A DNA stretch of 60,000 bases from Botryllus schlosseri (GCA_051294905.1 CM119372.1:5148001-5208000), one strand, 5' to 3'; shown: positions 72 through 55,492, counted from the stretch's first letter. Program-made: numbers and translations. The notes: a model not told the origin generated them from the letters alone.

Positions 72-1112
72 GATTCACTACTTGGTCTGAGTGGGGTCTT
101 TGTTCCGATACATGCGATGGCGGGTCGCAAACTCGAAATAGGAATTGCCCTTTCGATTCTTGCGATCCAGACGCTGACGGAGACGACGTTGAACAGGCAC
201 GCTCTTGTAATACTCAGTTATGCCCGGGAGAGTGGGGTCCTTGGGGAAAATGGAGTTCGTGCACTGGGACGTGCGGAGACAGCAGCACTTCAGAAAGAAA
301 CCGAGTTTGCCGGGGAGAATCCGAGGGAAGAACATGCGCCGGCCGTAAGAGACAAGAAAAAGCATGTCCCGCATTACCGCCATGCCCTGGAATATGGGGC
401 GATTGGACCCAATGGTCTAAGTGTACGTTGACATGCGGGGGCGGAACGAGGAGCAGATCCAGAACTTGCGAAAACGGAGTGGTCGGACAAGTCGGATGTA
501 TCGGAGATACAAGTCAGAGTCAGCCTTGTAACGTTAAAATATGCCCTACTTCTTGGGGGCAATGGCAGGAGTGGGGAGAGTGTGACGGTGACTGCCAGCA
601 ATCACGTTCTAGGTAAAACTCGCAAAATGGATAGCATGGATATGAGAAACCTAAGTCGGGCTTAATTTTCGTTTCAGGGTATGCACTGGCGGGAACGCGC
701 GGAATCGAGTATGCCCCGGTTCTTCATCAGAGACCAGAGACTGCGAGAATTGCAATGGTATAAGTTTAACGAGCCTCTTCAGATTATCTAGTAACCCTCA
801 TCTATCTCGTTTCTTTAGTTGGCGATAAGTGCGAAGGAATCTTTGACGAAGTCAATTGGTGTAGGGCTATTGATCCAGTACTGTGCTTCACACCGCCTAA
901 TGGGCAGTACTGCCAGCGCTATTGCTGTGAAAGTGAGTCAGTAATTGATCCGTAAAACAACAATATATCTAAATTGCAATATATTCCTAGACTGCCAGAA
1001 CAACCCCGCTTATCAGTATTGCCTCGAACAATACCGAGAGTTTTGCGCCAGTGATACCCCCACTGGGGAAGCGTTCCGAAACAATTGCCGGGAATTCTGT
1101 GGACTGTGTTAG
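72..1112 (+). CDS. Gene A, 3' part only: TSP1 repeats + CC-type ShKT-like domain + terminal ShKT of a modular protease paralog
   Basis: Phase-compatible GT-AG exons at 72-612, 678-757, 819-932 and 991-1112. They give 4 TSP1 repeats (e.g. WSEWGLCSDTCDGGSQTRNRNC), then CEGIFDEVNWCRAIDPVLCFTPPNGQYCQRYCC, then the ShKT CQNNPAYQYCLEQYREFCASDTPTGEAFRNNCREFCGLC, ending at TAG 1110-1112. The protease domain lies outside the window and is inferred from paralogy. Confidence 0.88.
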
Positions 1113-2432
1113 TAGTTGAATTTTATAGTGATATAATGATTTTAATCGTTAATCATGTCTGAATCTTATCGTTCCTCTTCATCATTATGAATGTTATCTT
1201 ATTTGTTTTATGATGACGACTCGTTTGTTCATAATACTGTTATTGAGTGGTTCCGCTGTAGAGCTGATGCTGTCTTGTGATCTCGAAGTGAGCTGCTGCT
1301 GTGTTATCACATGAAAGAGCCCCTTTAAATAGCGCTACATGCATTGGACGAGTGGCTCTCAAACGCATGTGGACTGGTGCAGGTCCATATAAATTTTCCT
1401 GTCGGTTTGTCATATCTATTATAATTTAATATATCAATTCCAAAGTGCAAGAAGTTGGTCGCTTGTCCGTTAAATTAGAGAAATGAAAGTTAAAATTTTT
1501 CATTGATATAGAAATTTGGAATATATTTTTCTGCACGATGTCGAATTATGATCAATGTTTCATGGTTCATGGTCTAATTTGAATTAAGCGCTCATCATAA
1601 TGCTGCAAGTGCTGAACCAAACTGTCTCAAACTAGCCTACAACCCAATTAGGACCAGTGATGTGGGAATGCTAAGAATACTTTTTTAACGAAATAATTAA
1701 GTTTAAGGGCATTTCGCATTGCAGAAACTGCATCAATCTAATATCAAAATGCCGCATTAAGCGATACTAGGAATATTCTGCTTCTTCACAATTGCGAATA
1801 AAGTTGATGCATTTCTGTAAATAATGCGTATAGAAAAATATCGGGTGTGGCAATTACGGTCGCACTCTTTTCCTCCCTCTTCCCTGCCTGAGTATTACCC
1901 GCGCAAGTCAGACCTTTCCAGAGAAACCAATTTCAGACAAATCTTATCATGGCGTCAAACCAATTAATACAAATATATTAATAATGTAATACAAAGGCCG
2001 GTATATTTTCATGATCACCACAGTGACCTTGTATATGTACAAACAAGCAAAGGATATCGCGCGAAGCGCGAAGAAATTTTGTTGTTGCAAGAAATTTAGC
2101 AATCACTTTGGGGCGGTCGCAGCCCAAATTTATACCCTTACCCATACTTTAAGAACCCCTGTTTTATAGAGTACAGTTTACTTGTCGTCGAATTCTGGAA
2201 ATGTAATCCGGCATTGAGATGAGTAGGATATAGAGGACTGTAACGAGAGTCTCAGATTGCTTTGCGAATTAGAATGTATAAAAATATTTGATGACTTGCA
2301 ATTTGACTACGAGGCACAAGTCATCTTATGTTTTCCATACGTCGAGTCTGAGTCAAGCCTATCGAAGGTCGTTACAGTGTTTGATTGGAGTCGAGCCAAG
2401 TCATTCGAGAATTGTGAGTGGAGTCACCCCAT

Positions 2433-7830: not shown

Positions 7831-9170
7831 ATGTATTCTTTATTGTTATTGTAATTAATCATAAGGAGAGTGTCGCTTATCAACACAATCGATCTCGTGC
7901 CTATGCCAGGAGAATTTTAACGGTGTCGGTTTACACTATCCGTTCATGGTTCGATATAACAATAACTCATGCGAAATATGACAAATAGGACGACTAGTTG
8001 TAGTAATTTCGAAACCGCACGGGGATTAAATGTTATAGAAAGGATAGTCTTTCACAATCAATATCCCCAGAATATTGTAATACTTGACAAGGCGTAGCAT
8101 GCACTGAATATAGTTTAACATACATTTAACCGAAATTTTCAAAAAGTAGGACATTTAGGCGTTCTCCGAGGACATTTTCAAAAATGTCAAAAAAGAGGAC
8201 AAATCCTCCTGGAAGTGGACGTATGGTAACCCTAGTATTGAGCAATAAGCATTCAGCCTGCGATGGCCTGAGCGCAGGCCAACACGGAAAAAAGTAAAAA
8301 AAACAGCAAAAAAGTCGATTCCAATCAGATGGAATATCAGCGAGACATGGAGCGATTAAAGTACCAATATAATCGATAACATTTACTTCTGCAACGCGTG
8401 ATTATAGAATGGTGACAAAAATTGAAACATAGTGTCCTATTTGGTGTGGACACAGCGAGATCGAGCGGCTCGCTGCATTTGGGTAACGTCATTCATTCCA
8501 TTTGACCAAATGCAACTTTACGTTCCCAGGTGGGTGTCTGATCTCAAAGACTACTCCAAATCGCTTTGGCACCTTCTTATCTTTCATTGTATCGCAGTCT
8601 TGTGATTTTTGAAGTGATGAAATTTTATGAATAAACTTGAACTTGATATATTTTGTGAACAACAGTCGTCAGATATCTCGATCGATGTGGTAAATTGAAT
8701 CAGTTCTAAAGCTGAATGAAATTCGCGTAGTCATAGCATCTATATTCAAGTTCACATTTTAGTTTTACGACTATACTGTTCGCTATGTCGTACATACAAA
8801 ATGAATCATTAGATCAATTGCCCGTTAAAGAGGCTTGAACATTTACGTATTGTAGAACATGTTGTTCTACGTGTTTACTGATCCCATGGGTTCAGAGACG
8901 TCCATGCTGGTTGTAATGATACGGAAGAATACTTAAGGGGTTGGGGGTCGAGTTAAGAGGGATTCACACTTCTTCAAAATCGAGTTTCACCGGAATTGGG
9001 AACACATTCGTTCACCTTGATTATTCAACCAGAAAGTATAAATTACTTTGGTGGTACATTACAAAACAAAATCGCATCATCGAGTACTTACGTCGCTTTC
9101 TACCTGAAAAGTGCTCTTGGCCGCAATTTGCACCATGTCACACTGGAGACAGGTTTCGCCATCCAAGGAG

Positions 9171-18100: not shown

Positions 18101-21100
18101 ACTTTATGTTGAACGAAGCTTGCAGTTTTTCTGAACTTCGCCCTCCCTTGACTGAGTGTTTTTTCGTGTTTTTGTCATAAGACCGACTTTGGTGAAATTC
18201 TTAATCTCGGCGTCATGCTCGGAAAAAACTGAAAGGACGGGTTTACCTCTGACTCCAGTGTTCTAAATTCTAAACTTAAACCTTGTTTGAATTTCAGTTT
18301 CGGCTTTCTTTTTTGGGCATGACCGTTAATCGTTTGTGTGCTGATAGATATGATGAGTGATATAGTATTCGCAAGCACTGATTGACTTGTTTTACGAATC
18401 AGTGATTTGGAACATATCACGTAGCAAATTGAAACTCATATACCGTATAATGCGTTAGTTGACAATGGCAACTAGGAAGGTTTGAACTAAACTATATCAA
18501 AAAAGCGATTTCTTGTGTCTTCAATTGCTACTCATACTTTGCCACCTTGCCTTTATATTGAATCTGGACTACGCATGCGTAGGGAAGCGTTATCGTGGCA
18601 CATTATTGAACATGCTTCAAAGTAAACGAATTTCCTGTTCATTTGATATAGTCAGTTTTAGTCATTCAAAAAGCAAGTTTTATTTTTGAATTCCAAGCAA
18701 CCTTTCGCGGGCCGCACAGAATAGCTTCGCGGGCCGCACTTTGCCCAGGCCTGATATAAAGCTTTCTATTAGAATGATTATACCTTTGTTTTCGAGAACT
18801 ACAAAATACAACGTCACCGAATCGGGCTGTGTGCATTGGGCTTGGAATATGAGCCCTTTCCTAACAGGTGCAATAAGAACCTTGATTTGATCCCGAAAAT
18901 ATAGTGCATACAATTAAATTAGTCGAGTGGTCAACGGGCGCGATGCGTGAAATATTTCCAATAGTCAATTCCAAACCAGAAAAAATCGACTGGACTTGGA
19001 CCTCTACGGCTCTACCCCGCCGTCTTTAGTACAGTCCTTGAAATTTGGGGTGGGGGAGTGCAGACCATGCAAATTTCCAAAAGGGGCGCTGGGAGAAATA
19101 AAAGTTAAGAACCACTGATCTAGGCACATCCTGGCCATTGTAGCCATGGCCACAGTAGTCTCAAAACACCATGAATACAACAACCATTCAGTATAGTAAG
19201 GTGCGCGAAATGCTCATTTCTTTTTAGTTTATCACATACCCTGGATGGGACAAGAGTATGTTTCAAATCAACGATATAGCTCTGATAGAACTAGATAGCC
19301 CAGTCACTTTCAATGATTATATATCGCCAGTGTGTTTACCTAACGGAGAAACAGTTAAAACTGGAACAACGTGTTTCGCTGCTGGTTGGGGGATTACCGG
19401 TATGACAACATTGTTCCAAATGCGATCAAATAATTGTACCACATAACCATATCATTTTAGGTCAAGACGAAGTGCTGCCCTCCACAATGCAGCCATCCAC
19501 ATTTCTTCAGCATGAGAGTCTGCAAATTGTTGATCGGGAAAAATGTGAAGAGAGTTATAAAAACAACAGGTTAAGAGTTAATGAGACAATCATGGTCTGT
19601 GCGGGATACGACGAAGGTCACAAAGACGCCTGTTATAAAGGTGTGGTATGCACAATTGCACATGCGCATCAAATAGTCACTCATCAAAAAGAATCGTTCA
19701 CTAATTGCAGGAGACTCCGGCGGTCCCTTAGTTTGCCAACGCTGCGACAGTTGCGGTTGGTTTGTCGCGGGAGTCATTTCGTTCGGAGGTAGATGCGCAC
19801 AAACGGGGAAATACCGAGTGTACACTGATGTAATGTACTATGAAGATTGGATAGCGAGAGAAACCGGAATTCACTTATCGAAGACCAACACTTGTACAGG
19901 ACCACGTAAGTTTAATGGTTGTCAACTACGTAGTACATACCTATCATATACATACTCTTTCGTGGTAATGAATCCATGGGATGCATTCACAGAGCTCACG
20001 AATTGGAGTGAGTGGTCCCAGTGTCCGACAACGTGCGGATACAAAGCCATTAAGAAGAGAACAAGGCGATGCCTCCATAAGGGTCAAAATAGCTCTGGTT
20101 GCGTTGGAGTGTTAAAGGATCAAAAGCAATGCCCCAGAAAGCCATGTCCAAGTATGGTATTATGTATAATGGCGAGGAATAGCGTCATTATCACTATTGT
20201 CACCACGTGATATTCAGGACTCAGCTCGTGGAGTGTTTGGACGCCCTGCTCAAAAGAGTGTGGCTCAGGCATTCAAAGTAGAGTAAGAGAATGCTTTCAC
20301 GGAGAGCTTGGTCTCGAGGAGTGCCCAGTGTCAGGATCTTTTCAGATTACAGTAAGTTGATATGCGATGAGAGTCAATTGGATGATCCCTGTAATGCTAT
20401 GCGACAACGATCGCAGAACAATCATAGCAATGTTCTCATTCAGAAATGTAACACAATGCCATGTGCAAAATGGGGAAATTGGGACACCTGGGGCCAGTGC
20501 TCGCAAACTTGTGACAGTGGAAAAAGGAAGCGGTCACGTAGTTGCATGAATACATTACCAGGCCAGAATTGCCTTGGCAAGCCCGTGGAGGAAGAGTCTT
20601 GCAATACTGCAGCGTGCCCCAGTAAGGCTTTCGTAACATTCCACACATATCAATGCCAATCTACTATATACTACTGACGTGATATTGTAACACCTGCATT
20701 TATAAAGCCATGTAGTCGGTGGTACATGGTGCAGCCAGACTCACAAATCCAATTCGGCTAATCAGGGGTTCTCAAAGGGTGGGCCACAGGAGCATTTGAG
20801 GTGGGCCACAAAGCTATTTAGAAATTTTTTGAATTATTGTAAGTTCAGCGATATTTGTTATCTTAAACGCTAAAAATATATTCATAAAGCTTTTCACCCG
20901 ACTCTGATAAGACGCAGTGGCACATATGGAGTCAGAATGTACAACTAGAAAACGGGATGGGCAAACGGCGTCTTTTTCCACTGGTTATGAAAACCTACGG
21001 CTAACCCCATCAAAAATAATTTGGAGTATATAATAACTGGACGGTAATGCTGAAGTAACCAAGCACTCCGGTAGGATCATATGTCATATGCCGTTGAAAG

Positions 21101-24100: not shown

Positions 24101-25833
24101 TTATTGTGGCAATCAATTCAACGAGGCAACCTGCAATCAGTATCCAGATTTTGCCGCCAGATACTGTAGAAAAACCTGCAACCGATGCACTGGTTAGCAT
24201 TTCACGCATTTCCTGACCTGTTCTGTGCAGGTCTATTAAAATAGTTTTTGGATTAGGGGCAGTGAAGTTCATGAAAAACATCATGCAATCGCGGTTATAA
24301 AAGTGACTTGCATATGTCGGTCCCGATCATGGCATGGTAGAGGTACGGACGTACGTGCATGTGAGACACCATGTACGGATAGGTAGAACTCTGCTAACCG
24401 CTAAACTAGGGTGCGCAACCCGCGACCCACCGAGAAAATTTATGCGGCCCGCGAAGGGGCGCCAATTTTGAAGAGTGTGCGATGCGTAATTTAGCATGGT
24501 CTGGTAGCTCAAGTGGCTAAGAGGGAGCAAATACCACTACGATGTATATGCCGACTTCGCACATGAATATTTTGACAAAATTTATTTGGGCGATTTGCCT
24601 TGAGCTATTCACGATTGCTACGTATATAGTTCGATTTCGACTTCTATTGACAAGTCTCGACATCACCAGACATTGGACGATCAGGATTAATGTATCGATG
24701 TAATCGATTACCATTGCATTGACAAATATGGAAGGGACAAAGCACAGCATTTCTGCGGTTGCATGCTTGCAATCTCGCAGAAAGTTTCGATCGGACTTTT
24801 TAGCTTGTGAACAAAAACATTCACCAGTTTCACTATCAGTGGTAGTCTCGACATTTAAAAAAGATTCAATTCAAGCAGCGTGATGTCGTTCTCTCTCTAC
24901 GAGCCATAGCGCTGGTGGCGATTACGCATATTCTTTGTTCACCTTTCTCGCGTTTATATTTACCTATCATTTGCAATTAAGCCTTCTTGAATAGACTCAG
25001 CTCGTTGACGAAACATCAGTTGTTGGTGATTTTAGGATGTCACATAGATAATAGAAATCTTACATTGCATCTTACGTTCATTTGGTTCTATGCTCCTATC
25101 TACATTTGGATCGTATTTTAGGGTTCGAACTAATATATTTCAATAAACTAGTTGGAAAGTGTTCGAATTACAATGATTAGTACCGTCTACCAGAAAGCAA
25201 ACCATTATAGATGCAAAGCAGTCGGTTACGATTACTCGGAAACGCTATAATGCTCGAAATGGATTACGTCTATAAATCACGACCACCCCATCTCTGGACA
25301 TCATCGTTATGATTTCTAATTAAGTGATGAGCCTTACAACTACTAAAAATACTACGTGCGTCTCTTCATTTTAGGGTGACATTTACCTAGCCCGCTTGTA
25401 AAACAAGGTTGCACAGATCTACACCACTGCACCAGACATATGACGATGGGAAATGATCGGAACCAGGTCTGTTCAGAAATAGCAAAGAAACCTCGAGAAT
25501 GATAATGACTATCAAAACAATAAAACTCCAAGATATGCAGCCCCACAAGATGTTGAAACCCTATGTAATTTCATGATGAATATTCTTGCCAAACCTCCAG
25601 GCCCGGTGTATTGCTACTCGGTCCATAATGAAGAATCCTGCAAGCGCTATTGTTGCGTCGAATCCAGAATCAATCCCAACCGGAATTAATATCAATATGT
25701 CAATTTCACAGGTTGTCAGGACAATCCAGCTTATTCGTATTGCATCGAGTCGTACCGAGAGTTCTGTTCCAGCAGGTCACCCACCGGAGAGTCATTCCGA
25801 AGTAATTGCCGGAAATTTTGCGGACTTTGTTAG
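9171..25833 (+). CDS. Gene B: secreted ShKT-EGF-cbEGF-trypsin-(TSP1)x6-ShKT-ShKT modular serine protease, possibly decaying
   Basis: Exons: 9171-9181 and 14474-14529 (signal MKGRVMLILLQLLMGHMEVSGS), 14593-14709 (ShKT), 14776-14904 (EGF), 15900-16055 (DVDEC cbEGF), 16160-16248 (RR|IVGG), 16314-16399 (TAAHC), 16464-16560, 19228-19399 (NDIAL), 19461-19640, 19711-19905 (GDSGGP), TSP1 exons 19993-20151, 20218-20351, 20444-20621, 23415-23649, 23713-23833, 23890-24012, ShKT 24079-24192, terminal ShKT 25712-25833. All are phase-compatible. Confidence 0.87.
10225..10886. mobile_element. Foldback MITE, near-perfect 662-bp inverted repeat
   Basis: Arms of about 316 bp (10225-10540 and 10572-10886) around a ~31-nt loop. 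TAGGGCTCTTC ends and TSD TTGTTCAT. The empty site is visible at about 52082. Confidence 0.95.
11740..12915 (+). mobile_element. hAT deletion derivative carrying a transposase C-terminal dimerization remnant
   Basis: TIRs TAGGGCGATTTT/AAAATCGCCCTA, TSD ATTATCAC, GTCAAAA subterminal repeats. Encodes ELTTAAVERSFSILGKLLGKNRHFLP..ENVGKCLSLYYNK (hAT ERxFS motif). Confidence 0.88.
12257..12532 (+). mobile_element. tRNA-derived SINE with (CAAA)n tail
   Basis: A-box TAGCGCAGTGG, B-box GGTTCGATTCC, CAAA-repeat tail and a 17-bp TSD ACACTTTYTACCCGAGA. It is absent from the sister element at 28592-29239. A 3' fragment occurs near 19150-19185. Confidence 0.85.
15191..15776. mobile_element. Foldback-type MITE with long imperfect inverted arms (gene B intron)
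   Basis: TAGGGTTGCATTTAAAAC/GTTTTAAATGCAACCCTA ends, with inverted similarity extending about 190 bp. No clear TSD. Confidence 0.8.
17435..18753. mobile_element. hAT (Charlie/Buster-like) MITE with nested MITE 17719-18024
   Basis: CAGGGGTGGGCAA/TTGCCCAGGCCTG TIRs, GCGGGCC subterminal motifs, TSD ATATAAAG. Confidence 0.85.
20763..21928. mobile_element. hAT-type MITE (CAGGGGTTCTCA ends)
   Basis: TIRs CAGGGGTTCTCA/TGAGAACCCCTG with TGGGCCAC subterminal repeats. TSD imperfect. Confidence 0.7.
25601..25660 (+). pseudogene. Decayed penultimate exon of gene B (CC-type ShKT-like)
   Basis: Reads GPVYCYSVHNEESCKRYCC, homologous to gene A exon 819-932. It lacks a phase-1 GT donor, and read-through hits TAA. 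Its N-terminal half (HDEYSCQ) appears to lie upstream in another frame. Confidence 0.55.
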
Positions 25834-30985: not shown

Positions 30986-36146
<5,161 letters not shown>

Positions 36147-36588
36147 AAAGATGTACTTCTAACTTACTGCAATTCGTATGCTCGCAATTTAGTCTGATAT
36201 AGTTTATGAGTTTATCGTGATTGTAATAGATATAGTGACCAGGGGGATATACATTTCCTAATCGACAATATTATTTGTTTACTCGTCATATTGTGTGTCT
36301 TACCTACTAGATTTTCACCATGTGATATGCACTGTTTCAGTCTTTTGTAACTATTTTATAAGAGCACGCAGTCATTACAAACATTTATCTATACACGCCT
36401 ATGCTATATATATATGATTGGTCAGGCATTACGACAGGAAAATCTTGATTTTCAAAAACTAGCATGTATGACGGTCACAAAGTAGCGTATATAGGTAAAT
36501 CTTCGTTAAGCGAGGGGTAAATTTTTCCCACTCACACGACAACGTCAGTGTTTATATGCTGTTCAGGAATAGTAGAAGCTTAACACAT

Positions 36589-36650
36589 AGCGTACTAGCA
36601 GAATTTTGAATTACCTGTAAGCGTACTAACAGAATTTTGAATTACCTGTA
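36589..36650. repeat. 31-bp tandem duplication
   Basis: AGCGTACTARCAGAATTTTGAATTACCTGTA x2. Confidence 0.85.
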
Positions 36651-38272
36651 AAATGGTCATTTTTTCGTAAGGGACGGTATTACAAAACCCACGCAGAGAG
36701 GCCAATAACAGGATTCACATTTGACCATATTCGTAGCCAGAACTAATATTTTGAAAGTACAGTGGACATTTTAGGGAGCGGTTATATCTTTTATTTAATT
36801 TAAAAAATTGTGAAAAATCAAAAAGCACATTATTCCCGTCTAATGATTCCGGAATTTCGCAATTTAGTGAAAACAGGAATTTGTGACAACATTTTAAGGT
36901 AGTCCTATCTTTAAGATCTTAAACTTTGAATTAAGTACTGAACCACGAGTCTTGGGTGAGTTTTCAAATGACGCTGTCAACAAATATAGTTCTAGAGCGT
37001 AGCCCAAATCAAACAGACCCAACTAAACGTAAAACTCCTTCGGTGAGACGCATGTCTCCTTTCACGAGGTGCAATATTTTCCTCTGTGAATTGCATTTGT
37101 ATCACAGGGGTAAGATTGTAATCTACGCCCCGTTGTGTTCTGGCGCGGAGGTGGTTGGCGCCGAAGGGCAGGTGCCTAATAGTGATACTTCGCCGGTTGC
37201 ACGACCACAGACTAATGCATCCAATAATCCGAAAGCGTTCCTATAATTCCATCGTTTTCTCGTAATTTCGAATACAGACAGATTCAATTCAGTAACGTAT
37301 GCTGTAGTTTTCGGGAGGGGTTACGCACATCAAAACTTAGTAAAAAAATACCATCCCAAAATCGCGCGGAGTGCGAAGAAAAATTGTTGGAAAAAGTTGG
37401 ATATATCTGTCCTAAAATACTCTTATTTCATGTTCATCATGCAGGGAGAGAGCACGCAGCAGTTATAGTCCAAATATATTATCAATTGATGTAACGAGAT
37501 GAACATGAATTCTAGAAATGCGGTGCAGATTTCTGCCGAATTCGGTTAAATGAACTAGTGAACGAATCATTATGGTTCAATTCCTACAAACAATGAAGTA
37601 TATTTTGGCGTCGGTTTGATAGACAGAGAGAGAGGGAGGGAGGGAGGGTGAAAGAGTGCAACCGCGTGGCGTTCCGGTTATTTTGTAGCGGGAAGACATA
37701 AGCCTACTCCACGCCACCTTGAGGTGAATTCTCACAAAACGTCGTAGTGGAACGAATAGGACATATCGACGGAGGCGGTGAACGGTTGAAATTACGTCTG
37801 ACTTGGATATGATGCCTGTTCAGTGTTCAGACGAGCCAATACCGAAGTGATAGCAATTCGCAAACGTGCATAATGCATTGGCCTGCCTTTTCGCAAACAT
37901 GCAGATGCGGTATAAGAACAAGATTACGATAATAATATGATTTCGGAATCTGCGAGTCATGGTGTCATGGGATTTCAACTTCGCGATGTGCAGTGATGGT
38001 TTCTTAATGACAGTACGTGCCAGGCGTCGTCGAATGAGGACAAGCTGTGTATAACAAATATCTGAGACTGCACACTGCACAGTTACATTTTTTTATGTTT
38101 TGGAGAGATGTCTGACATTCGCACCTCATAATCGATAACGAACTATCACACAAGATTTCGGTCTAGATTTGCTCCGACGAAAATATCGAGACAGAGTGAA
38201 CATGGTAACACATAAATTTGGACAATGTCGTTTTAAAGTGAACATTTTTGAGTCAAATGCTTCAATTTAGTT

Positions 38273-39473: not shown

Positions 39474-39564
39474 ATTTAGTTGGATAACAAGTCCAATAAC
39501 CGATTTTGTTGTATAGTTCAGGTTTATACACGGGGTGAATCAGATGACTCAAATAGCTTATCAG

Positions 39565-40481: not shown

Positions 40482-41594
40482 CTTATCAGTAATGAATATA
40501 AATTTACCGAGGCTTATCGCAGCAAAGTTATTATTATTAACAAACATCATATGCCGTTTTTAATCCCCCAAACCTATATCATATCGTTGAAATAAAGTGT
40601 CGACCAAGGTGTTGACCGAAGGTGAAATGGTTCATACCGAAGTAATCTGTTCTCTAATGCGTGGCATTACTTGACGGAAATCTCCTGCCGATGTAAAATA
40701 TCATCAAAATTATATTATTGCATATAATCTCCGAATATAGGTATTGTTTATTTTTCGAGAATAGGAAGAAACCACCACTTATTTAGTTCCGATGACGTTA
40801 ACAATAAGTGAAGGGCAACCTCTTTATCGAGTTCCACAATGACATTCTTTCTTACGCCTGCCCCCGCAATAGGTCTTTTGCACCCAGTGATATCTGCTAG
40901 TGCATCAAGCTGATGTATACTAGTTTGAGTAATTCATGTGATTTGATTTGAGTTGACGCTTTGTTATTATTCTCAGGTAGGCCAAATCATCATGACATTG
41001 CACGACGCACATTATGTAATATAATACTCGATGTAATAGCAGTAAGTCATTTTCTGACGAATTAGGCAAAATGTCGTGTTGGTGGTAATTGTTCATTAGG
41101 TTTGACCAATCTCATATCCTCTGTGAGTCACACAGTTGACTATGAAACCGATACTTTCCGCATTCAACCCAACACCGAAATTACCCAGTCGAAATTACGC
41201 GAAACCACAGGTAAACCGCGCGACAGACCATCGACATACCAACAAGTGTGTTCATTTAAAGCAATATAAATATATACACTTGATATGAGATGACGATCAT
41301 GAAATAGAAGCCGAAGCTAATGCGATTTATTTTTGAAGCGATATGACGCGAATTTTGGTTGATAACATGCAATCAGCAGGCTAGTCTAACGTTAGTTTCG
41401 ACCACCGATCACCCGGGGCACTATATGATACAGGGTTCGAGTTCACCTGAAGAATCGGAGAGGTTCTAGTAGAAATTAAACGCAGCTCCATACCAATTGC
41501 ACGTATTCTATTTCATTAAACAAGAAAGACATCAGAAATTGTCTAACGCAAATGACAAAGGGATTGTAATTTTTCGTATTAGTAAAGAGAAGAG

Positions 41595-44500
41595 ATGAAC
41601 ATACGTCTTGCGATCACAGGAGCAGTATTAGGGATTTTCCTATTAGGGGCCCACAGGATAACTGCAGGTAAATATACTGGTCTAAGAAATAAGGCTTGAC
41701 AGTTATTACGATATGAATACAGCCACACCAGCAGGACCATGTCCCGAAGAACAAGCTTTTTGTGCAACAGTCGTGGGAGTGTGCGATAGCGAAGAAACAA
41801 AGAAATTATGTCCGCTAACTTGCGACGCATGTTTGCCTTCGAGTAAGGTTCAACGAAAGATTTCCTACAAGTCGATGGTATTTTTAATGGCAATTTGTTT
41901 GAAAAATCCCAGTATGCCAAGACTGCCAGCAGAATTGTACTTTGTATGACGACGGGAAAGAGTACGCATGTACGTGCAACAAAGGATACAAACTTGACGA
42001 AGACGGCGTAAGCTGTTCAGGTTCTACTAATACCATGGTTTGTAACGGAATATTTCCCTAATTAACAGATGTTGATTTAGATATCAATGAATGCGCGGAA
42101 AGCCCGCATATCTGTGGGCAAGAGGACGTTTGTCAGAATCATGTAGGCAGTTTTGAATGTAAAGCCGACAAATGCAAAGTATATCACCACAAAAATTATG
42201 TAAGATCTTATTCCTATCCCGCCGAATGCTGCAAAATGTCGAAAGGTAAATAATAATGATTTTCTCGAAGAATGGTATCGTTCCAATCGAATAACTGCGT
42301 GTTTCTGCATCTACTAGGAAAGTGCGGACAAAATAATCAAAACAGAAACTCACGGGCACTGCGAATTTCCCACGGAGAGAGTGCTTCAGCTGGGATGTGG
42401 CCTTGGCATGTAGGTTCTTGTTCGTTTCGTGGTGTTGGCAGTAATCTTACGGTTAAGACTCAAGTGCACGATCTGCATTAAAGTGCATGGATTATATTAC
42501 TAACACAAATCGAGATGCTGTGGATGAAAAATGTTTCCTTCTATATGTCACCAACCTGGTAAAAATATTTTTTAAAAAGTGAAACAGCAATCACTACCTA
42601 CGATGTAAAATTACGAAGGAGGATTGAATGCGCGAGGATATGACATTATACCACATGTCACAAATATCTTTCTTAGAATGCGACATACTCAATGTACTCC
42701 ATTCATAACAGGGGCCGGTTAGTCATACCATGCGTTTTCTTATTCCTATACAGGCAATGATCATCATGAAAGATCAATTGTGTGGTGCAGCTCTAATAAG
42801 CGATAATTGGATTGTCACCGCAGCACAATGTTTCAGGTTGGTTATTTTGATTTAGGGAAAACTTGTGTTTAAAAATCATTTCCCTGTATCGCATAGGTCA
42901 ATTAGAAATGGAAGGCGCGTAAACGGCATCGAAGTGCTATTTGGCGTAGTTGATCGGAACCGACTGGATAGCCATACAAGTCAGGAGCGGCAAATTATTC
43001 AGGTGAGAAGCGTGTGTCATTATGTCGAGATGCAAGATTAGCGTTTAGTTGCGGGAATCCATGTCACCAAGAGCCATCTCCAGGTACGCAGTCGAGCATA
43101 ACATGTCCAGTCCACAGTGTTAGCGCAATTTAAATCAATATAATTTTATTGCAATTTAAATCAAAATAATTTTATTAAGGTCTTTAAGCATAGCAAGTTT
43201 AAATTTCCTCTGCACGACATCGCTGTCGCAAAGCTTGATCGCCCGATAAAAGAAAGTGAGTTCGTTAGACCAGTATGTCTTCCAAATGGAGAAATGCCCA
43301 AAGTCGGTACTCGCTGTTTCGCAACGGGCTTCGGAGTAACAGGTCAGCTCCTCCTTCTTATTATTTTAATTTGACTTTATAAATTTCAAAACGCTTCGCA
43401 GGACCGGGTGTGTTTAATCCGTCTGAAGAGCTCCAGCATGTTGACCTGCCAATAACTGACATCACGGCATGCAGAGAAGCGTACAAAGGCTCGCCGAACA
43501 AAGTTAACACGAGATCTATGATGTGCGCAGGAGGCGATAAAATAGGAAAAGATACATGCTTGGGTAAATGAGTGTCACCGTGTCAAAAATTACAAATTGC
43601 CTCTGCCTATTGTATTATTGTGACAATCGATAGCGATCGATCTACACCCGTCATAAGTGTCCAAACAAATGATCAAATTATGTCCATATCCCTAATTCTT
43701 GACATTCAAATTCATACTGATTTTTTATCATTCCTTTTTTTGTAGAAGAGTGATGGGATCTTTACCGTAACGTTATATTTTCTAAGAAAAGCTAAATTAT
43801 AGTCAAGACCGCAAGAAGAACTTTACATCGTTGTGTCACTTACGAACCCATATAGCATTTTCCACCGCGCCAAGAGGTCGGCATCTGCAGACTGAGATAC
43901 TAAGGCGGGGTGGGCAACCGGCGGCCGTAGAAGGATATTTGTGCGGCGGTAGATACGTGATTCAATTAGTATGTGTTGACGGCCGTCGACATGCAAATTG
44001 AATTTACGAATTGACTCCTGAATTTTTGATAGATTTATAATTATCTTAGAATTTTCTCCCATGTAGAAATACCAACTTGGAATCGTGTGCTCCTCATAAA
44101 ATTAAATTTGTTTCTGGCACGTTTGGTAGATTCCAATATCTTTTTCACAATACCGACAATCCTGATTGGAGGTCAAGAAATAACAGCATGCAACAAAGTG
44201 ACAACGATTGGCCCACCCGAAGATGCACCATCATTTATAAGTTGCCGAAAATTTCCGAAAACACTCCATCAATCAACTCTATACCGGTGAATCTGATTGA
44301 ATGGGCAGAGAAAGGATAAATATGTGACAGTAATATGTGAAACTACAGATATTAATGACGAAATGCATTCGTGAAGCTGAAAAATTTTTCGCGCTTCGCG
44401 AGATCATATAGCGGATCACGGTCACTATTCATAACATGAACATTGAACACTCGCAATTTCGGTGCGTATAGTTATCAGATATGAAAAGTAGGTTAGTCCG

Positions 44501-47500: not shown

Positions 47501-50500
47501 AGACATGCGGTAAAGGGGAAAGATCTAGAAACAGGTATGTGCTACGCAGTGGTGGCTTTTGGGGTGGCCGAGGTGGGCGGAAGCCCGGGGCCCCCTGGTC
47601 GAAGGGCCCCCCTCTTTGGTTGTAGCGTTTATTTCACGGGTTGTAGCGAATAGACGTGGAAATCAAGAATATTGTTATTAAAGTCTCATATCACGACAAT
47701 CATGAAGTCTCTGCATGCCTGTTAAATTGGTAGGCTTTTTAGGGGGGTCTGGGGGGGCGGAGGCCCCCAGAAACTTCGATTACATACTTATAGGGCCCCC
47801 CGGATGTCTCGCCCAGCCCCCCCCCCAATCGTAGGGTCACCACTGGTGCTACGTTTTCTCTTGGAGAGTACAGTCCGGCTATGCTTACTGCTGTAGACCA
47901 TAAACCGTGAGATATATCAGTCATGGCCAGGCCGTGTTATTTTTGCCATGTGCCGAAAATAGCCAATTTTTGGCATTTGTCAGATTTTATTTTTGGCAGT
48001 TTAGGCATCGCCAGGAATTTGTATTTGTATACTCGAATTAACGAAGTGAAGCACTGTATAGTTTAATACTTCATACCAAACGAAAGTCACAAAACGTGCA
48101 GTATACACTTTGTGTCATCAAACAGCGACAATAAAAACCGGATTGACAACGGTGTTGGAGATTCAATTCACCAAATTCAAAAAACGACCGACTGCTTCTG
48201 CGCAATATCGAATCCGAATAGTCGATTCGATTTGCGTGCATAATTTCCTGCATTCACACAGATCACAATACCACTTATGATAACAATTCAAAATCACTGC
48301 TGACACATTTTAATCTCAGACCATCACTCGCCAACTGATGTTCCGAAATCACGAGTGGCTTCAATATTCAATATAATATGAAAAAATATCCAATGGGCTA
48401 ACAAAAAAAAACACTAAAGGGCCGAATATTTGCAAGCCTGTGTATGGTACGCTTTTTGACGCCGGAGGCACTTTGCACTGTATAAGTGGGTATGTTCAAC
48501 TGTTCATTGATGAAACTATATATATCCCTATTGTCCAACGGGACACAGTTTATCAGTGCACCGTATGCTGACATTTTCATTAACAAGTTGAAAGTAAATG
48601 GAATTATATATACGTATTCGGCTAAATGCAGCATGGGTCGCGCGTGTCGGCTACATGAGGTCACAAAGCTGTGACAACAGAAAATACCTCGTCGTTGAGC
48701 TATACACCCGATATTTTCATTCCTACAACACAGATCCCTTGGACGGTAGACCGTGGCCTTCAGAAGGAATCACGCCGTTAGCGGACCTCAATTTAGGAAT
48801 TTAGTAATACACACTCGTTTTGTCACTTCATGTAGACTCATTTCAATACTTGATGAAATTTCTATCTAAAACGTTTGTAAAAATCTATATTTTCAAAAAG
48901 CCTTATTTTTTTGGCTTTTGAATTTTTTTGGCAGTTTTGGAATCTGGTTCCCGAAATGCCAAAAATAACACGGCCTGGTCATGAGATTTTAGTTGGCTTT
49001 AACTGGTTCGAAAATCACGATTTGAACAGTCATCGAAAAATAATCTATGTAGGTACCGAAACTGTGTAGAATCGAAAAGTTAAGTGCTCAAAATATCTGT
49101 GACAGAACATAACTAATAACACCGAAAGGATATTATGAAACCATATCGCGGGATTTTTACAATGGGGAATTAAAGTATTATGGTGAATCCCGGATAATTT
49201 GATTACGAAATGTAGGCTATGCCTGGATAAATGAAATACAGACAATTTGCGTTTTATCTATCCATATGTCATTATACAGAACGTGCAACGTATTTCTTAA
49301 TGAGGATGCTAAATGCGTTGGAGACAACCAAGAAACGCAAGAATGCTCCACTGAAATTTGCCCAAGTAAGCGCATTTACGTTATCAAATTCGTCATTCGC
49401 ACGTCAACTACGACATGTTAAATACATAGGTCAATGCGACGAGCTCTGCGTAGAGCGAGTTAAGGTTGGAGCATGCAGAATATACAGAGACTGGATTTCT
49501 CGAATTTGCCATCCTGATTGTTGTGGTGAGAATTGCTCCAAGTTATTACATTGAAATAGATTTTCATGCCGTCACCACACTTGTATATCGCGCCAGCCAA
49601 TAGCATGAGTTATAAATAGACTTGAGTTCGATTGGAGATATGGATGGTAATTGTAACAACGAAAATAGCGACAGATGACGCGTATCAGTCAAGTCGATCG
49701 AATCATATTGATCGTATGTTACATTGTTGCAGGCTGCGACACGGAACTAACGAAAAATGACATGAATTTATGAATGCGTATTTAACAAAGTGTCAAATTT
49801 CTGTTACACTCAATGACTCGACTAGTTATGTGTTGTTTGTCGTATTTTTTGCGATTATACCCGATTGTGTCGTCGGAAGCGTAACACGTTATTATTACAT
49901 TCGCCACCACTTATCTTTGTGGAAATGGATTTTCGGCACTCGTTCATATCAAATCGAAGGCGCGGATTTTCAAGACACGACCACGTATTTCAAGAAATGC
50001 AGTTGCAGAATTCGCTTTGAAATGATAAAAGTCAACCCAATTTCCACATAAATAGTATGATGTTATTTTCGAGAAAAGTCAGTTTGTTTCTCTTTATCAC
50101 TATAGCCTACAGTTGCACAAGACGGGTGACGATTGAACGATAACACTGTGCTCCGTTTGAAAAGTATTTCTCAAAGGTCAAATACGTTTTAACTGTTTTC
50201 GAATCAATTTTTTGCGCTGAACTCAAAAATGCAAACAGTTTTTTTCAATCAGGTCAAGTTTTTTCTTCATCACATATTCAATTATGCTAGCTTTGGTCAT
50301 TATTGTACATGTACAAAAATAAATTAGGTTCTGCGGTAGCTTAATTGGTTATGCATGTTGTAAATTTTTGCAAGATGGTATTTTTATTTGAATTTAAGGT
50401 ATTTGCCATGACAGCCGTTTTAGATACTACTAAAATATAATAACACAGTTTAAATAAAGGCACTTACAACCAACCAAGCATAATTTTGTTCAATGGCGCT

Positions 50501-53500
50501 CAACCTAACAGAAGAAGGTATATATTGATATGTTACACTGTAGACACGTAAACACTTTTAACATCACAAATGTGTTCTGAATGCGAAATCCTTGCCAACG
50601 TCAATGTGTGAAGTGTGAAATGGAAACGAAGTATTCAAAATAGCTTAACAAAGTAAGCGTTGTGCGGAACCTATGATAAATTAAACTGATACTGAAACTG
50701 ATACTGATATTCCTACGATCAATACAATCTCGCACCCCTTTCTCGTGATATTACGAAATATTAAAGAGAGAAATCAGATCGCTGGCAATCTCAACGGATA
50801 GTTTGATGGCATTGAAGGCTATTGCTATTGAGGAGAGAATTCTCAAATATTAAATTCGGACAATAGACGATATACAATAGATATACCATGGGCTGGAGGT
50901 AAATCGCGCGAAGCGCGAAAAAAATTCAGTGAACAGCGATTTTGCGCCCTCCACTTTGAGAACCACTGCTACAGGGAATGGTCTTCGTCATAATTGAAAT
51001 ATTTTCTAAACTTTTCATCATAGCATCATTGCTAAATCCTTTTTATGACGTCACAAATCTCAATCGCATAACCCTGAAAGCCGCAGTTTTCGGACATTCA
51101 GAGGCAATTTGCCAAAAATCTTGACCTGATTGAAGAAAACGGATAACAGTTTTGGATTCAGCATCAAAAAGTACACTAAGAACCGTCAATACTTTAGCGA
51201 CCTTAAAATTAACGCAGCGCAGTGTAATTGAAGTAAATTTGAACTAAAACTTCGGGGGTCCGCGCATTGGCGGAGCCAGGGGGGCGAAAGGAGCGGTCAC
51301 CCCAAAAAAAATGTTTGGAAAATTTTCGTAAAATCAATAGATATTACAGAATTTTGGGGCAGATGAATGCAACCTAAAATTTTTCTTCGCGCTTCGCGCG
51401 ATCTAGTGTCCATACAAGTCTTGTGTTTTATTATCGGTATCCTGAAAAAAATTTCTTCCGGAAATACCCGTTATTGAATTTAGCTGCATTCTCAATTATG
51501 AGAATACAACAGTACCAGTAGATACACTAGAGTAGCCCGAAGTCGTTGGGTGGATTGAGTCTAGGGGTGTCAGTTCAGTTTGGGGGTTGGGGACTGTTAG
51601 TTCCGGCAATTTCCGTTCCGCGACACAGGAAGACATATAAAGTAGACAACATGCGAGTCATCCGCAAAGTGCGCTCCCAGAATGATTGACGGCCATAAAA
51701 CCGACGCATGTTTTCCGAAGCCTTCGATATAGATTTTCAGGTACTTAAATGGCTGGCGCCTAATGTACTCAGCCCCTTCCGACATAAATGCGACTGGCAC
51801 AGGAAAATATCGCCACCTCCCGTTAAAAAGTGCTAATTTGAAGTCGCACGAGTCTGATCATAGGAGTTTTTTTTAATTTGGTCTGGTATGTCTCAGCGAT
51901 TTCTATCTTTAAAGTAGCGTCAATCTTTACCAGAGGTTACTAAATAACCGCGCTTCAACGAAGTAATTAATAAGAATGGACACCACTTGCTCATATAAAC
52001 GCAACAATATCATTGATCAAATTCTTTCATTTATAAAAAAAATTTCACGCTCCGTGCGACTAGGCCCGAAATTCACACTGATTGTTCATCACTTAATGTC
52101 AGCGATTTGGGCTCGTCCGTGAAACGATCGCCTAATACAAGCCATAGTTGGCAACTGGAACTTTCCATAGGGTGTGTGTGTGTGCGCCTGTGCGTCTAAG
52201 ACTCGTTCGTATGTATAAAGGGTAGTGATGAAATTGCCCACGACAGGATGTACGGTTCTGCGAGGTGTTCCCACAGGGTTGCTCCCTTAAACTAGGGTTA
52301 TTATATTTTGGAATCTGGAAAAATGGACTCTTTTATCAACTCAGAAAAGTTAGTTGATCAAAATTGAAATCAGTCAATTTCGCTATTTCTGCTGAGAAAT
52401 TTGGTAAGATGACTAAAAAAAAGGTAGTCGTTTTCGATCGAACCACGAATTTCGTATTTAGCGTTATTTATGGCCATTTTCACTCGAATCTATACATTAT
52501 CTTAGCTGTAAAAGCTGTAAAGGAGGACTTATTGCCAGAAAGGAGGACATTTAGGCGTCCCCGGAGGACATTTTCAAAAACCTGAAAAAGAAGGACCCTA
52601 AACTCATAAAAAATTTGCCCCCCCCCCCCCGAAAAAAAAATAATTCTGGCTTTGCGTGTGCGCGATCGCTTGAGTGGTGACAGATTTTTTCGCAAGTCAT
52701 GAAGTAACAGCAATAAATACCAACTGTCCCGTCCGGCGCTCACCTTCTAGAAACTCGAAATAGTCTTGCCTTGTGGTATGAACATATAGTTCAGGATGTA
52801 TAATTAAGTGCCCTGAATGTTCGATGACACCACTTCTATCAGCCCTACCAGTAAATCTGATAATGAAAACGTATTTGCAGTATGCAAGTAACAATATAAT
52901 GAACCAATATAATTCATGAACAATGAAAAATTTTCGCGCCTCGCGCGAAAGTGTTGACGCCCAAGTTTTCCGCAATCATCATATTATCACATTACTTCAT
53001 GTCTGTGAGTAAAATATATGTAAAACGATCGCCTCAGATATTGTGTTAATCATCCAATAAATGCCCAAAACCATCGTTTTTTACCTATTTTTTCCTTATC
53101 TTTAAGGAGGGGGTCTTTTACGTTATCGAATTTTTCGCCCCCCTCAAATATTTTTTCTGGCTACGCCCTTGGGTCCGCGGGAGTCCTTAACCGTCCAAAA
53201 GGGGTCCGCCAAGACAAAAAGGTTGATAACCACCGCGTTACAACAACTATAACGTTGACCCCTTAACCAAGGGGTGGCCAACAAGTGGCACGCGGGAAGC
53301 TGCGGCACACATGTCGCCCACGATAAGATTTTGAGTGGTATGCGGGGTTATTCTCGAAATTAGCTATAATATCAAAAAATATATATTACCCAGGTAATTT
53401 ATTGTGAACTAACAACGCCAACCAAAGTTTAATTAGTCTGACCGCAAAAGTTGGGATGTTGATGACTAAAATATCAGTTCCGGCGCATTTGCCTAGCCAG

Positions 53501-55492
53501 GGGCCAGCCGCATTTTTCGTAGATTTTTGTATATGACCATTTGGCCATAGAGTAGAATATTTCATGGTAGACTTATTTGACTTGATATTTTTCTTAGCAC
53601 TTCGCGCGATGTATTGCCACTCGAAGTCTTGCTTTTAGTATTGGAGCCCCCTCCATAAAATTCAAAATTTAAAATACCCCCAATTTACAGTATAGAGTCG
53701 AACTATAATCGCGACTTCGCGTCAGAACTGATAGACGCATGTACACCGATATCTTCGATATTGATATCCAAGCGTCGAATAATCCCGCCCTTGTCAAATG
53801 AGCCCAGAGGTATATAGAGGAAGAGACTCGCAATATATCCAAGTAACATTATTATTGACCGAATTCATTCAATAACTATGAAAAATTTCGCGCTCTACGC
53901 GGCCACGGCATCCCTGCACCCTGGGTTTTCATGACATGACGGTAATCTATTTGGATGCGTAGTAATATAAGTCTTGTTTCACCGTTACCTAATCCGGTTC
54001 GCTTCTATCTGACGACTTAAACCGGTCATCAATATTCAAGTGGCCCGCGCAACGGTTCGTAAATCGCATGTGGCCTGTGGGCCGAAAAGGTTGGCCACCC
54101 CTGTCTTAACCTTATGCCTGCTGATCCGGTGACGCCTGTCGCGAAGGAGAAATTTGTTTTAAGTTACCAGTGTCCTGTTGCCCACAACTTGCTCGATAGA
54201 CGAGGACCCACTTCGGTTCATTAAAGGGGGCCAGTGCCGCGCTCGTCCCGAAACCGTTTCCGGATCAGATATCAACACGTCAATTTAAATTCACGATGCA
54301 GTCAGCCACTATCAGACATCATTACGTCCCCTACCAAATGAATACCGATTCAGATATTGGTTATATCCGTTACCATAGACCAGGGGTGTCAAACTCAAAT
54401 TGCGTCGCGGGCCGGATTCAAGCTTTCAAATCGCTCGCGGGTCGGATCAGTTAACTGATTCCAAAATGTTACCTTGTGCTCTTGCTTTTCACTTGAATAC
54501 GTTAAAAGCATATATAGATAATATGCGGATCGGTTTTTAAATTAGGAGTAGCAAGTCGCATAACCTCTATTCGCGAACAATGTGATTGGCTAAAATACGA
54601 TGATTGCCAGTTGAATACAGTTAAGAACTGCTGAAACAGTGGCGTTAACGAAGATTAGTAGCCACATTCTGTGCTCCCTTTGATTTAGTCGTAGTCTGGC
54701 GTTGGCCCTGCATATGGCTTGCGAGGAATACAAGATATTTAATAGGAAACGCGGACGTTAGAGTTTGGTTTATTATTATTAAACCACGAGTCCGGTTTCT
54801 CTGATGTCTGGGGATATATTGGGTCGAAATTGACACAGCAGTGCGACCATAAATCTTTCAATTATATTTTGTGCCACTATTATATTTTGCCTGTCTATAA
54901 CGGTTCCGCATTGGCGTTTTCGCTTCTGTTGAAGAACTATCTTTTTGGTCCATATTTGAATAAAACTACGAACTTAGTGTGCACATTTTGCCTTCTTGAC
55001 ATTGGATGTTGATTTCACCGACTTGTTACTATAGTGGTAACTAGAGTGAAACCACAGCGCTGTAGTCGGGTAATGGGCATTATAAATATGGAAGTATTTC
55101 CTGCAAAATATCTCAACATTTGTCACAAATTTGCTTGAAAATCTATATAAGAAAATTCAATCTACTCAGAATTGCTTCGCGGGCCGGATGAAATCGTCTG
55201 GCGGGCCGGATGCGGCCCGCGGGCCGTATGTTTGACACCCCTGCCATAGACTGTTCCTAATCATCTTCAATGAATTATTAATATTAGCCAAATTCAATCG
55301 GTTGAGCATCTGGGTTCGACATATCTTTAGTAAACTTAAGCCAGGTAATACGATTAAATAACATATTTACGGTGTACAGGTCCAGCACATTGCCGGGATG
55401 AATCACCTCGATGCCAAGAGGCTGCAGCAGCAGGATATTGCGGCGATCCCAGCGTTTTACAGAGCTGCCTGGTGTCATGCGGTCTATGTTAG
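41595..55492 (+). CDS. Gene D: secreted ShKT-EGF-cbEGF-trypsin-homolog(H57Q)-(TSP1)x11-ShKT-like-ShKT protein, probable pseudo-protease
   Basis: Exons: 41595-41667 (signal [24 protein letters not shown]), 41723-41842 (ShKT), 41913-42020 (EGF), 42081-42245, 42318-42409 (LR|ISHG), 42754-42836 (TAAQC), 42897-43002, 43180-43342 (HDIAV), 43402-43563, 45538-45736 (GDSGGP), TSP1 exons 45798-46069, 46136-46298, 46359-46517, 46577-47534, 49280-49364, then 49430-49524 and terminal ShKT 55380-55492 ([33 protein letters not shown]). Confidence 0.9.
43125..43176. repeat. 26-bp tandem duplication abutting a gene D splice acceptor
   Basis: GCAATTTAAATCAAWATAATTTTATT x2, followed by AAG|GTC. Confidence 0.85.
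43906..45501. mobile_element. hAT MITE with nested MITE, in the intron preceding GDSGG of gene D
   Basis: CGGGGTGGGCAACC/GGTTGCCTTCCCCTG ends and TSD TACTAAGG/TACTAAGA. Confidence 0.8.
44535..45386. mobile_element. hAT MITE with GCGGACCCC subterminal repeats
   Basis: CAGTGGTTCTCAACC/GGTTGAGAACCGCTG ends and TSD GTTTAACA. Confidence 0.9.
47547..47845. mobile_element. Short GC-rich MITE 12 nt downstream of a gene D splice donor
   Basis: CAGTGGTGGC/GTCACCACTG ends and TSD GTGCTACG. Confidence 0.85.
47928..48977. mobile_element. MITE with TTTTTGGC subterminal repeats
   Basis: TIR CAGGCCGTGTTATTTTTG/CAAAAATAACACGGCCTG and TSD GTCATGGC/GTCATGAG. Confidence 0.85.
50144..51224. mobile_element. Chapaev3-like (CMC group) non-autonomous transposon
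   Basis: CACTGTGCTCCGTT/AACGCAGCGCAGTG ends with extended subterminal inverted similarity (TTCAATCAGGTCAAG) and a 3-bp TAA TSD. Confidence 0.7.
51265..53171. mobile_element. Second copy of the 9387-13094 element
   Basis: Same TIRs, TSD GGTCCGCG. Lacks the foldback and hAT/SINE insertions. Confidence 0.9.
53269..54103. mobile_element. hAT MITE (GGGGTGGCCAAC ends)
   Basis: TIRs plus TSD CCTTAACC/TCTTAACC. A related fragment lies at about 11151-11530. Confidence 0.8.
54381..55243. mobile_element. hAT MITE (CAGGGGTGTCAAAC family)
   Basis: Perfect TIR CAGGGGTGTCAAAC/GTTTGACACCCCTG and TSD CCATAGAC. Confidence 0.92.

Follow-up and report, generated by a model that had tools for sequence, protein, structure and literature searches.

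The 60,000-nucleotide stretch of Botryllus schlosseri DNA analysed here (GCA_051294905.1 CM119372.1:5148001-5208000; hereafter the window) holds most of a cluster of four paralogous genes, A to D, arranged head-to-tail on the + strand, whose products combine an S1 protease domain with N-terminal ShKT and EGF modules and a C-terminal string of TSP1 repeats. The preferred explanation, to which a probability of about 0.6 is assigned, is that they belong to a tunicate family of matrix-targeted secreted trypsin-type zymogens that also includes non-catalytic paralogs. The common layout is signal peptide, ShKT, EGF, calcium-binding EGF-like (cbEGF-like) module, S1 protease, TSP1 string, cysteine module and ShKT. 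The reading frames are open over 1307 (A), 817 (B), 792 (C) and 1038 (D) amino acids, with 15, 6, 6 and 11 TSP1 repeats, respectively, by Pfam and motif counts, and the introns are GT-AG throughout (17/17 in B, 16/16 in C and 16/16 in D). B, C and D share every intron column and phase between the ShKT exon and the end of the protease domain (1,1,1,1,0,2,0,1,1,1), as the original prediction had proposed; the signal peptide of C is interrupted by one extra intron relative to B and D. The interval first given for the array, 72 to 55492, runs from an exon start of A to the stop codon of D, and its claim of four head-to-tail paralogs holds, A having been confirmed as a full gene from upstream sequence.

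The protease and TSP1 exons, which the original prediction had placed in single genes, are joined in transcripts as well. Four runs (X1, X4, X15 and X23) were aligned to 31000-50000. X15 spans introns and is genomic, the contigs of X1 and X4 skip introns and are thus like complementary DNA (cDNA-like), and the raw RNA sequencing run X23 was shallow (depth no more than about 3) and gave no joints that could be used. Splicing was read from the contig records, the joints listing being dominated by repeat-derived joints of X15. In C, X4 record 14 (2154 nucleotides) contains the cbEGF exon and the last protease exon together with two TSP1 exons, and joins 34364-34558 to 34620-34876, that is, protease to TSP1; X1 record 1 joins 34111-34275 to 34364-34558. 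In D, the last protease exon is joined to the first TSP1 exon by X4 record 16 (45537-45735 to 45798-46020) and the following TSP1 exons by X1 record 4 (45798-46069 to 46136-46298), while X1 record 5 and X4 record 17 cover the single 958-nucleotide TSP1 exon (46577-47530/47534). Since these contigs bridge protease and TSP1 exons, one transcript carries both parts in C and in D.

The alignment of the active sites supports the catalytic states originally assigned to B, C and D, with active and inactive paralogs of secreted type side by side. The triad His57/Asp102/Ser195 is complete in A, B and C, and Gln57 replaces the histidine in D. The trypsin-type residues Asp189/Gly216/Gly226 are found in A, C and D; B departs from them. 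All four zymogen sites have Arg at P1 (RR/IVGG in A and in B, KR/VIGG in C, R/ISHG in D, the slash marking the cut), and Asp194 and the cysteines flanking the cut site (Cys122 partner) are present in A-D. From these features A and C are predicted to be ordinary trypsin-type enzymes, C reading as a canonical trypsin-type zymogen. B has a one-residue insertion in the oxyanion (192-193) loop, between Cys191 and Gly193, where 25 other compared proteins have a single residue, and Arg at position 226, which is Gly in A, C, D and 18 intact database family members. The altered loop and Arg226 would probably change the substrate specificity or activity of B. D retains Asp102, Ser195, Asp189, Asp194, Gly226 and the Arg-Ile site, but because of the His57Gln change it would be unable to use the normal charge relay, and it is classed as a protease homolog, not as an enzyme of normal mechanism. 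Most likely, D is a non-catalytic binding paralog acting as decoy, competitor or cofactor. The third residue after its activation cut, His in the assembly (ISHG), is Gly (GGC, ISGG) in the cDNA-like X4 and genomic X15 contigs (variant rows 42371 and 42372); the residue behind the activation cut of D is therefore polymorphic.

For secretion, activation and anchoring we infer the following course. The zymogen would be secreted and then cut after the Arg of its Arg-Ile or Arg-Val site, and the N-terminal ShKT-EGF-EGF piece would stay tethered through the usual disulfide between the pro-region and Cys122. The TSP1 tail could tether the enzyme to glycans or proteins of the matrix or the cell surface, as proposed by comparison with the ancillary TSP1 repeats of ADAMTS and of the ascidian Tast proteases. 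Cleavage at Arg or Lys would thereby be delivered locally. WxxW and CSxTCG motifs, the C-mannosylation and O-fucosylation sites of group-1 thrombospondin repeats, are present in the TSP1 repeats of A-D.

Gene models and domain content

The G+C content of the window is about 40% and its open frames are short, a pattern expected for intron-rich animal DNA. From 612 stop-to-stop open reading frames (ORFs) of at least 30 amino acids on the + strand, 169 with at least 4 Cys or at least 62 amino acids were selected, and 150 were scanned with Pfam. Trypsin (PF00089) pieces were found in 10 ORFs of B, C and D (21.1-50.3 bits, cut-off 20.6), TSP_1 (PF00090) in 12 ORFs at E<=3e-7 (31-203 bits, cut-off 21.6), ShK in 4 ORFs and EGF-type matches in 5. 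The matches cluster into four blocks (about 29-1109, 14310-25830, 31138-36143 and 41686-49551) that are 30-57% identical to one another in a paralog BLAST. No families other than Trypsin, EGF-type, TSP1-type and ShK scored above cut-off in the window ORFs, and 16 additional ORFs, of which 13 lie on the minus and 3 on the plus strand, matched no Pfam family. Gene models were built by spliced protein-to-genome alignment with ascidian templates, the 5' exons being set by eye and B being refined using A. The templates included two intron-free Logan transcripts, P0063 (792 amino acids) and P0076, obtained in a protein search with the last protease exon of C, in which P0063 is 79% identical to C; used as templates, the relatives thread through B, C and D exon by exon. 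The coordinates of the features are collected in Table 1.

A genome search found exactly four matches to the last protease exon of C on contig C2, the fourth being A, 2.8 kb upstream of the window. With 20 kb of upstream sequence included, A was modelled in 26 exons at window positions -9773 to 1112, in the order ShKT-EGF-cbEGF-protease, 10 TSP1, ShKT, 5 TSP1, CC module (a six-cysteine module ending C-x3-CC) and ShKT, with an intact active site. The part within the window encodes four TSP1 repeats, followed by the CC module and the terminal ShKT; an intron interrupts the last of the four repeats. A far-upstream signal-peptide exon given by one template was dropped in favour of a nearer ATG exon common to B, a tentative choice.

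The domain order and the 6, 6 and 11 TSP1 repeats originally assigned to B, C and D are borne out, and the end of B had to be revised. C reads signal-ShKT-EGF-cbEGF-like-S1 protease-6 TSP1-CC module-ShKT, its exons 1-2 (30986-31020 and 31081-31121) being placed by inference only, and its predicted KR/VIGG cut site lies at 32552/32553. D has the order signal-ShKT-EGF-cbEGF-S1 homolog-11 TSP1-CC module-ShKT; its last intron is 5.85 kb long (49526-55379), and the junction to the last exon comes from the gene model alone. B runs signal (questionable)-ShKT-EGF-cbEGF-like-S1 protease-6 TSP1-ShKT-ShKT, and the ancestral CC module is found only as a relic exon in its last intron, with one Cys lost and an unusable splice donor. 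The relic was tried as part of B, and all 19 in-frame splice options had poor sites, none with a positive donor score. B lacks A exons 14-17 and 22-25, both losses being in frame.

The small cysteine modules were judged for ShK (PF01549) by a six-Cys pattern ending C-x3-C-x2-C and a profile score above 20.9 bits. Among 12 exon pieces, four exceeded the cut-off (B N-terminal 26.6, B internal 21.1, C N-terminal 24.2, D C-terminal 22.7), three fell below it (A C-terminal 14.0, B C-terminal 19.1, D N-terminal 13.9) and five gave no match (C C-terminal, the three CC modules and the B relic). The six-Cys ShKT pattern recurs in every N-terminal and every C-terminal module. The penultimate CC modules have no Pfam match, and "ShKT-like" is for them a descriptive label only; the last module of D also has a weak PLAC match (18 bits, below cut-off). 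EGF_CA scored 34.5 bits in D, above the cut-off of 27, and 25.3 and 21.2 bits, below it, in B and C; cEGF scored 27.4 bits in C and 29.1 in D (cut-off 26.6). A Cys-rich stretch, Cys-Gln-Arg-Cys-x-Ser-Cys, stands directly after Ser195 (34374-34410 in C) in all family members, including those of Ciona and Styela, and may form an extra family-specific disulfide.

Between and within the genes, further traces were observed. The degenerate copy of part of C begins 1.5 kb beyond the C stop codon and is interrupted by stops in every frame; it is debris of a partial duplication. In the A-B spacer, an isolated short ORF (7865-7978, +) with a sub-cut-off EGF_3 match of 18 bits may be an EGF exon relic or a chance match, and a weak sub-threshold hAT dimerisation match (12124-12327, +, 16.9 bits) is probably transposon debris, as is probably a weak sub-threshold zf-RVT match (26963-27169, +, 21.7 bits) in the B-C spacer. 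The depth of X15 contigs reaches thousands, against about 60 elsewhere, with many repeat-type joints, at 32902-33535, 37974-40509, 43680-45581, 47484-48117 and 48752-50000; high-copy repeats occupy the spacer between C and D and the large introns of both genes.

Table 1. Features of the A-D cluster, in window coordinates; active-site residues are numbered as in chymotrypsin.
Feature	Position	Strand	Basis or remark
Gene A, last four exons (stop included)	72-612, 678-757, 819-932, 991-1112	+	gene model and Pfam
Gene B, 18 exons, 817 amino acids	14478..25833	+	gene model
B protease exons	16160-16248, 16314-16399, 16464-16560, 19228-19399, 19467-19640, 19711-19905	+	Pfam and model
B Tyr-Lys codons between Cys191 and Gly193	19634..19639	+	alignment
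B codon CGA (Arg), position 226	19815..19817	+	alignment
B ShK exon	24079-24192	+	equivalent to internal ShKT of A and of Styela P0121
B relic CC-module exon, last intron	25549..25654	+	one Cys lost, splice donor unusable
Gene C, 17 exons, 792 amino acids	30986..36146	+	gene model and spliced contigs X1 record 1, X4 record 14
C protease exons	32512-32597, 32667-32752, 32815-32923, 32990-33152, 34116-34277, 34366-34560	+	Pfam and model
C active-site codons	His57 32742-32744; Asp102 33026-33028; Ser195 34371-34373	+	alignment
C pocket codons	Asp189 34265-34267; Gly226 34470-34472	+	alignment
C TSP1 exons, six repeats	34620-34876, 34942-35110, 35179-35560, 35622-35707	+	Pfam and model
Degenerate copy of C exons 14-15 and intervening intron	37654..38067	+	66% identical to 35265-35705 in an alignment of 451 positions
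Gene D, 17 exons, 1038 amino acids	41595..55492	+	gene model and spliced contigs X4 records 16, 17; X1 records 4, 5
D codon 174, third residue after the Arg-Ile cut	42370..42372	+	window CAC (His, ISHG)
D codon CAA (Gln) at His57 position	42826..42828	+	alignment; context Thr-Ala-Ala-Gln-Cys
D TSP1 exons, eleven repeats	45798-46069, 46136-46298, 46359-46517, 46577-47534, 49280-49365	+	Pfam and model
D terminal ShKT exon (stop included)	55380..55492	+	ShK 22.7 bits, above 20.9 cut-off

The tunicate family and the history of the cluster

A full-length search with P0063 recovered collinear relatives from Ciona intestinalis, C. savignyi, Styela clava and Clavelina lepadiformis. They share the same order and are collinear from the N-terminal ShKT to the TSP1 string, the number of TSP1 repeats varying (6 to 15 here); P0063 aligns over 18-791 with P0076 and over 19-693 with P0084. 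The members in Ciona intestinalis are Q8T3A0 ("Putative coagulation serine protease"), LOC100185217, LOC100176289 and LOC100175024, those in Styela clava P0084 ("hemicentin-1-like") and P0121 ("ADAMTS adt-1-like"), and those in Clavelina LOC143446070 and LOC143446071; within Ciona, and likewise within Clavelina, the members lie on the same chromosome-sized contig. A HMMER search gave further collinear representatives: seven of the ten clusters inspected were named and collinear, all seven from tunicates, two more collinear clusters were unnamed, and the other high scorers were fish polyserase-like or TSP1-rich proteins. The ESM Atlas returned generic S1 clusters only (0.85-0.88). On these searches the family is apparently limited to tunicates. 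The original prediction of extracellular proteases with active and inactive forms is retained, whereas the novelty and lineage specificity it claimed for the architecture were overstated, full-length collinear relatives in Ciona, Styela and Clavelina making it widespread within tunicates. No functional description of the family and no paper on it was found in the literature searched, although an earlier description may exist elsewhere.

In the protease-domain tree the family forms a clade with support 100/100 (96/99 in the first tree); the second tree omits P0189, P0155, P0163, two ovochymase domains, P0090 and the duplicate P0134. A and B form a clade (100/100) to which Styela P0121 is sister; C falls with the Logan transcripts P0063 and P0076, and D pairs with Styela P0084. 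Because A/B and probably D have separate Styela orthologs, the cluster is old. A split between an A/B type and a C/D type came first; later A was duplicated to give B, exons were then lost, and relic exons remain. The DNA of A and B is collinear, introns included, at 70-88% identity, and the proteins are 75.5% identical; the ratio of non-synonymous to synonymous substitution rates (dN/dS) between them comes to 0.20 overall and to 0.16 for the protease domain alone, dS being 0.70. By these comparisons B is a shortened, younger tandem copy of A. A fifth member, E, is unlinked (contig C1, G000:C1:30280675-30297911, loci L015 and L016). E is the sister of C on a long branch and has six TSP1 repeats and a degenerate protease site: the zymogen sequence reads R/IFRG, Asp189 is missing, the 192-194 loop is shortened and Asp194 is replaced by Asn.

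Ser195 is lost in two of the 20 database members, both from Clavelina (P0159, Ser195Ile; P0161, Ser195Arg), and Clavelina has an active and a dead member with consecutive gene numbers, LOC143446070 and LOC143446071. Gln57, the B-type loop insertion and Arg226 were found in none of the 20 database family members compared, and no closer D ortholog by which to date the Gln57 change was found, the candidate P0391 being a Ciona-type member. Members with dead sites recur across the family, and the cluster evolves by birth and death of copies.

Alternative explanations

Several points weigh against the reading of the cluster as matrix-targeted zymogens with a non-catalytic binding paralog. The idea that the TSP1 tail anchors the enzyme in the matrix is drawn by analogy, not from a result, and no biochemical or expression-site data on any family member were found in the literature searched. 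The transcript contigs cover C and D, and the structure of B is a model prediction; the first coding exon and start codon of B are likewise predicted, its signal peptide being short and weak. The pairing of D with Styela P0084 has moderate support only (91/79). The Gln57 codon of D shows no difference among the 40 variant rows listed out of 266, and its fixation in the species is unproven. Moreover, the tree branch of D is long (0.95 versus 0.54 for its partner P0084), and among the variant rows listed 13 of 30 sites change the residue in D versus 2 of 9 in C, so that relaxed constraint instead of a new role could account for both.

A dedicated extracellular cascade, in which C (or A) would activate its neighbours at their Arg-Ile or Arg-Val sites with a dead homolog as cofactor, as in the clip proteases and their serine protease homologs (SPHs), had been the original proposal, set in immunity, clotting, tunic remodelling or fertilisation, and is considered unlikely. 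The Arg at P1 of all four zymogen sites would suit the Asp189/Gly226 pockets of A and C, but it fits any trypsin-like activator and carries no specificity for a neighbour, and the Pfam scan found no clip domain or other known cascade-pairing module. Active and inactive members adjoin here and have consecutive gene numbers in Clavelina; however, the paralogs are old and have separate Styela orthologs, and adjacency would follow from duplication history without joint function being required. Spliced contigs of C and of D occur together in the cDNA-like runs X1 and X4, but these runs were chosen for containing C.

The suggestion that B and D, together with E elsewhere, are duplicates decaying towards pseudogenes, which would leave A and C as the only functional proteases, is likewise given a low probability. 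Decay would account for the loss of His57 in D together with its long branch and non-synonymous variant sites, for the eight A exons lost from B, its relic exon and the unique changes in its active-site cleft, and the degenerate C fragment does attest gene decay within the cluster. However, the 18 exons of B and the 17 of D form open frames in which all splice sites are GT-AG, the TSP1 repeats of both retain all cysteine and tryptophan motifs, the A-B dN/dS is low and the exon losses of B are in frame, and two runs contain correctly spliced transcripts of D.

The matrix-targeted reading can be carried a step further, although only tentatively and with little confidence. The tunicates would then possess a matrix-anchored system of their own, in which TSP1-tailed zymogens are accompanied by independently killed paralogs serving as traps, cofactors or competitors. 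The killed forms (His57Gln in D, the loop deletion and Asp194Asn in E, Ser195Ile or Ser195Arg in other ascidians) would keep an intact, activatable substrate-binding cleft for Arg-containing targets. If this were true, the cluster would be a working unit of proteases and pseudoproteases that serves in defence by haemocytes, in the turnover of the tunic or in the processing of egg coats, and an independent parallel to the SPH-assisted cascades of arthropods and the EGF-EGF-protease clotting factors of vertebrates.

Finally, that the protease and TSP1/ShKT parts are separate adjacent genes wrongly merged, as the automatic names of relatives ("hemicentin-1-like", "ADAMTS adt-1-like", "SCO-spondin-like"), which follow the TSP1 part alone, might suggest, is hardly credible, given single cDNA-like contigs that, in both C and D, run from the last protease exon into the first TSP1 exon with over 190 nucleotides to either side of the junction, intron-free Logan transcripts, P0063 (a 2765-nucleotide contig) and P0076, that encode the whole layout, and a junction phase that is continuous in all four genes.

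Relation to known protease systems

The vitamin-K-dependent proteases (factors VII, IX and X and protein C) share with A-D the EGF-EGF-protease order and the Arg-Ile or Arg-Val site, and the Pfam FXa_inhibition and cEGF models match the first EGF, a likeness that is probably the source of the old "coagulation" name in Ciona. They differ in that A-D have ShKT in the place of Gla and a long C-terminal TSP1 tail. No Gla match was found in the window proteins by the Pfam scan, the N-terminus consisting of signal and ShKT, and factors VII, IX and X are absent from the best 60 sequences of the PDB, the solved chains being plasma kallikrein, factor XI, enteropeptidase, membrane-anchored proteases, prostasin and acrosin. 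With no Gla domain and a protease that is not nearest to VII, IX or X, the "coagulation" label therefore reflects the EGF-EGF-protease order only. The arthropod clip cascades with SPHs resemble A-D in having active and dead homologs in one family and Arg-type zymogen sites, but A-D lack a clip domain (no CLIP match in the Pfam scan, the N-terminal region being filled by ShKT-EGF-EGF) and their dead sites arose by different substitutions.

The group-1 TSP1 run that follows the protease, as in ADAMTS, and the small six-Cys module at the end recall ADAMTS, papilin and properdin, although A-D have no reprolysin or disintegrin domain. The names "ADAMTS", "hemicentin" and "SCO-spondin" given to relatives were rejected as misnomers, the core domains being absent from the window scan and from the Pfam lists of the relatives. 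Combinations of ShKT with EGF, TSP repeats or trypsin-like domains have been mentioned in general terms in a review (PMC6409789). Cnidarian trypsin-ShK and trypsin-TSP_1-ShK proteins bring S1, TSP_1 and ShK together in secreted form (Babonis et al., bioRxiv 10.1101/645952); they figure there as a row of a domain survey, with no EGF pair reported. The cnidarian and tunicate combinations are likely products of independent domain shuffling.

The nearest functional analogy for A-D is the Tast proteases, in which a tunicate astacin protease is combined with TSP1 repeats and of which four contiguous Tast2 genes lie on one Ciona chromosome (PMC9265791, PMC11673157). Tast differs from A-D in being an astacin zinc protease and a type II membrane protein without signal peptide, and the excerpted text of PMC9265791 reports no EGF or ShKT.

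A-D are not a new kind of system, their architecture being already catalogued in other sea squirts. To our knowledge, the blood, tunic and gametes of tunicates are without a vertebrate-type clotting cascade, and the family is a reasonable candidate for extracellular proteolysis in those places. What the window provides is a partly RNA-backed anatomy of four members of a large, functionally unstudied tunicate family that has been hidden under misleading automatic names. Moreover, dead but otherwise intact members arise in it repeatedly, which makes it a natural case for the study of pseudoprotease evolution.

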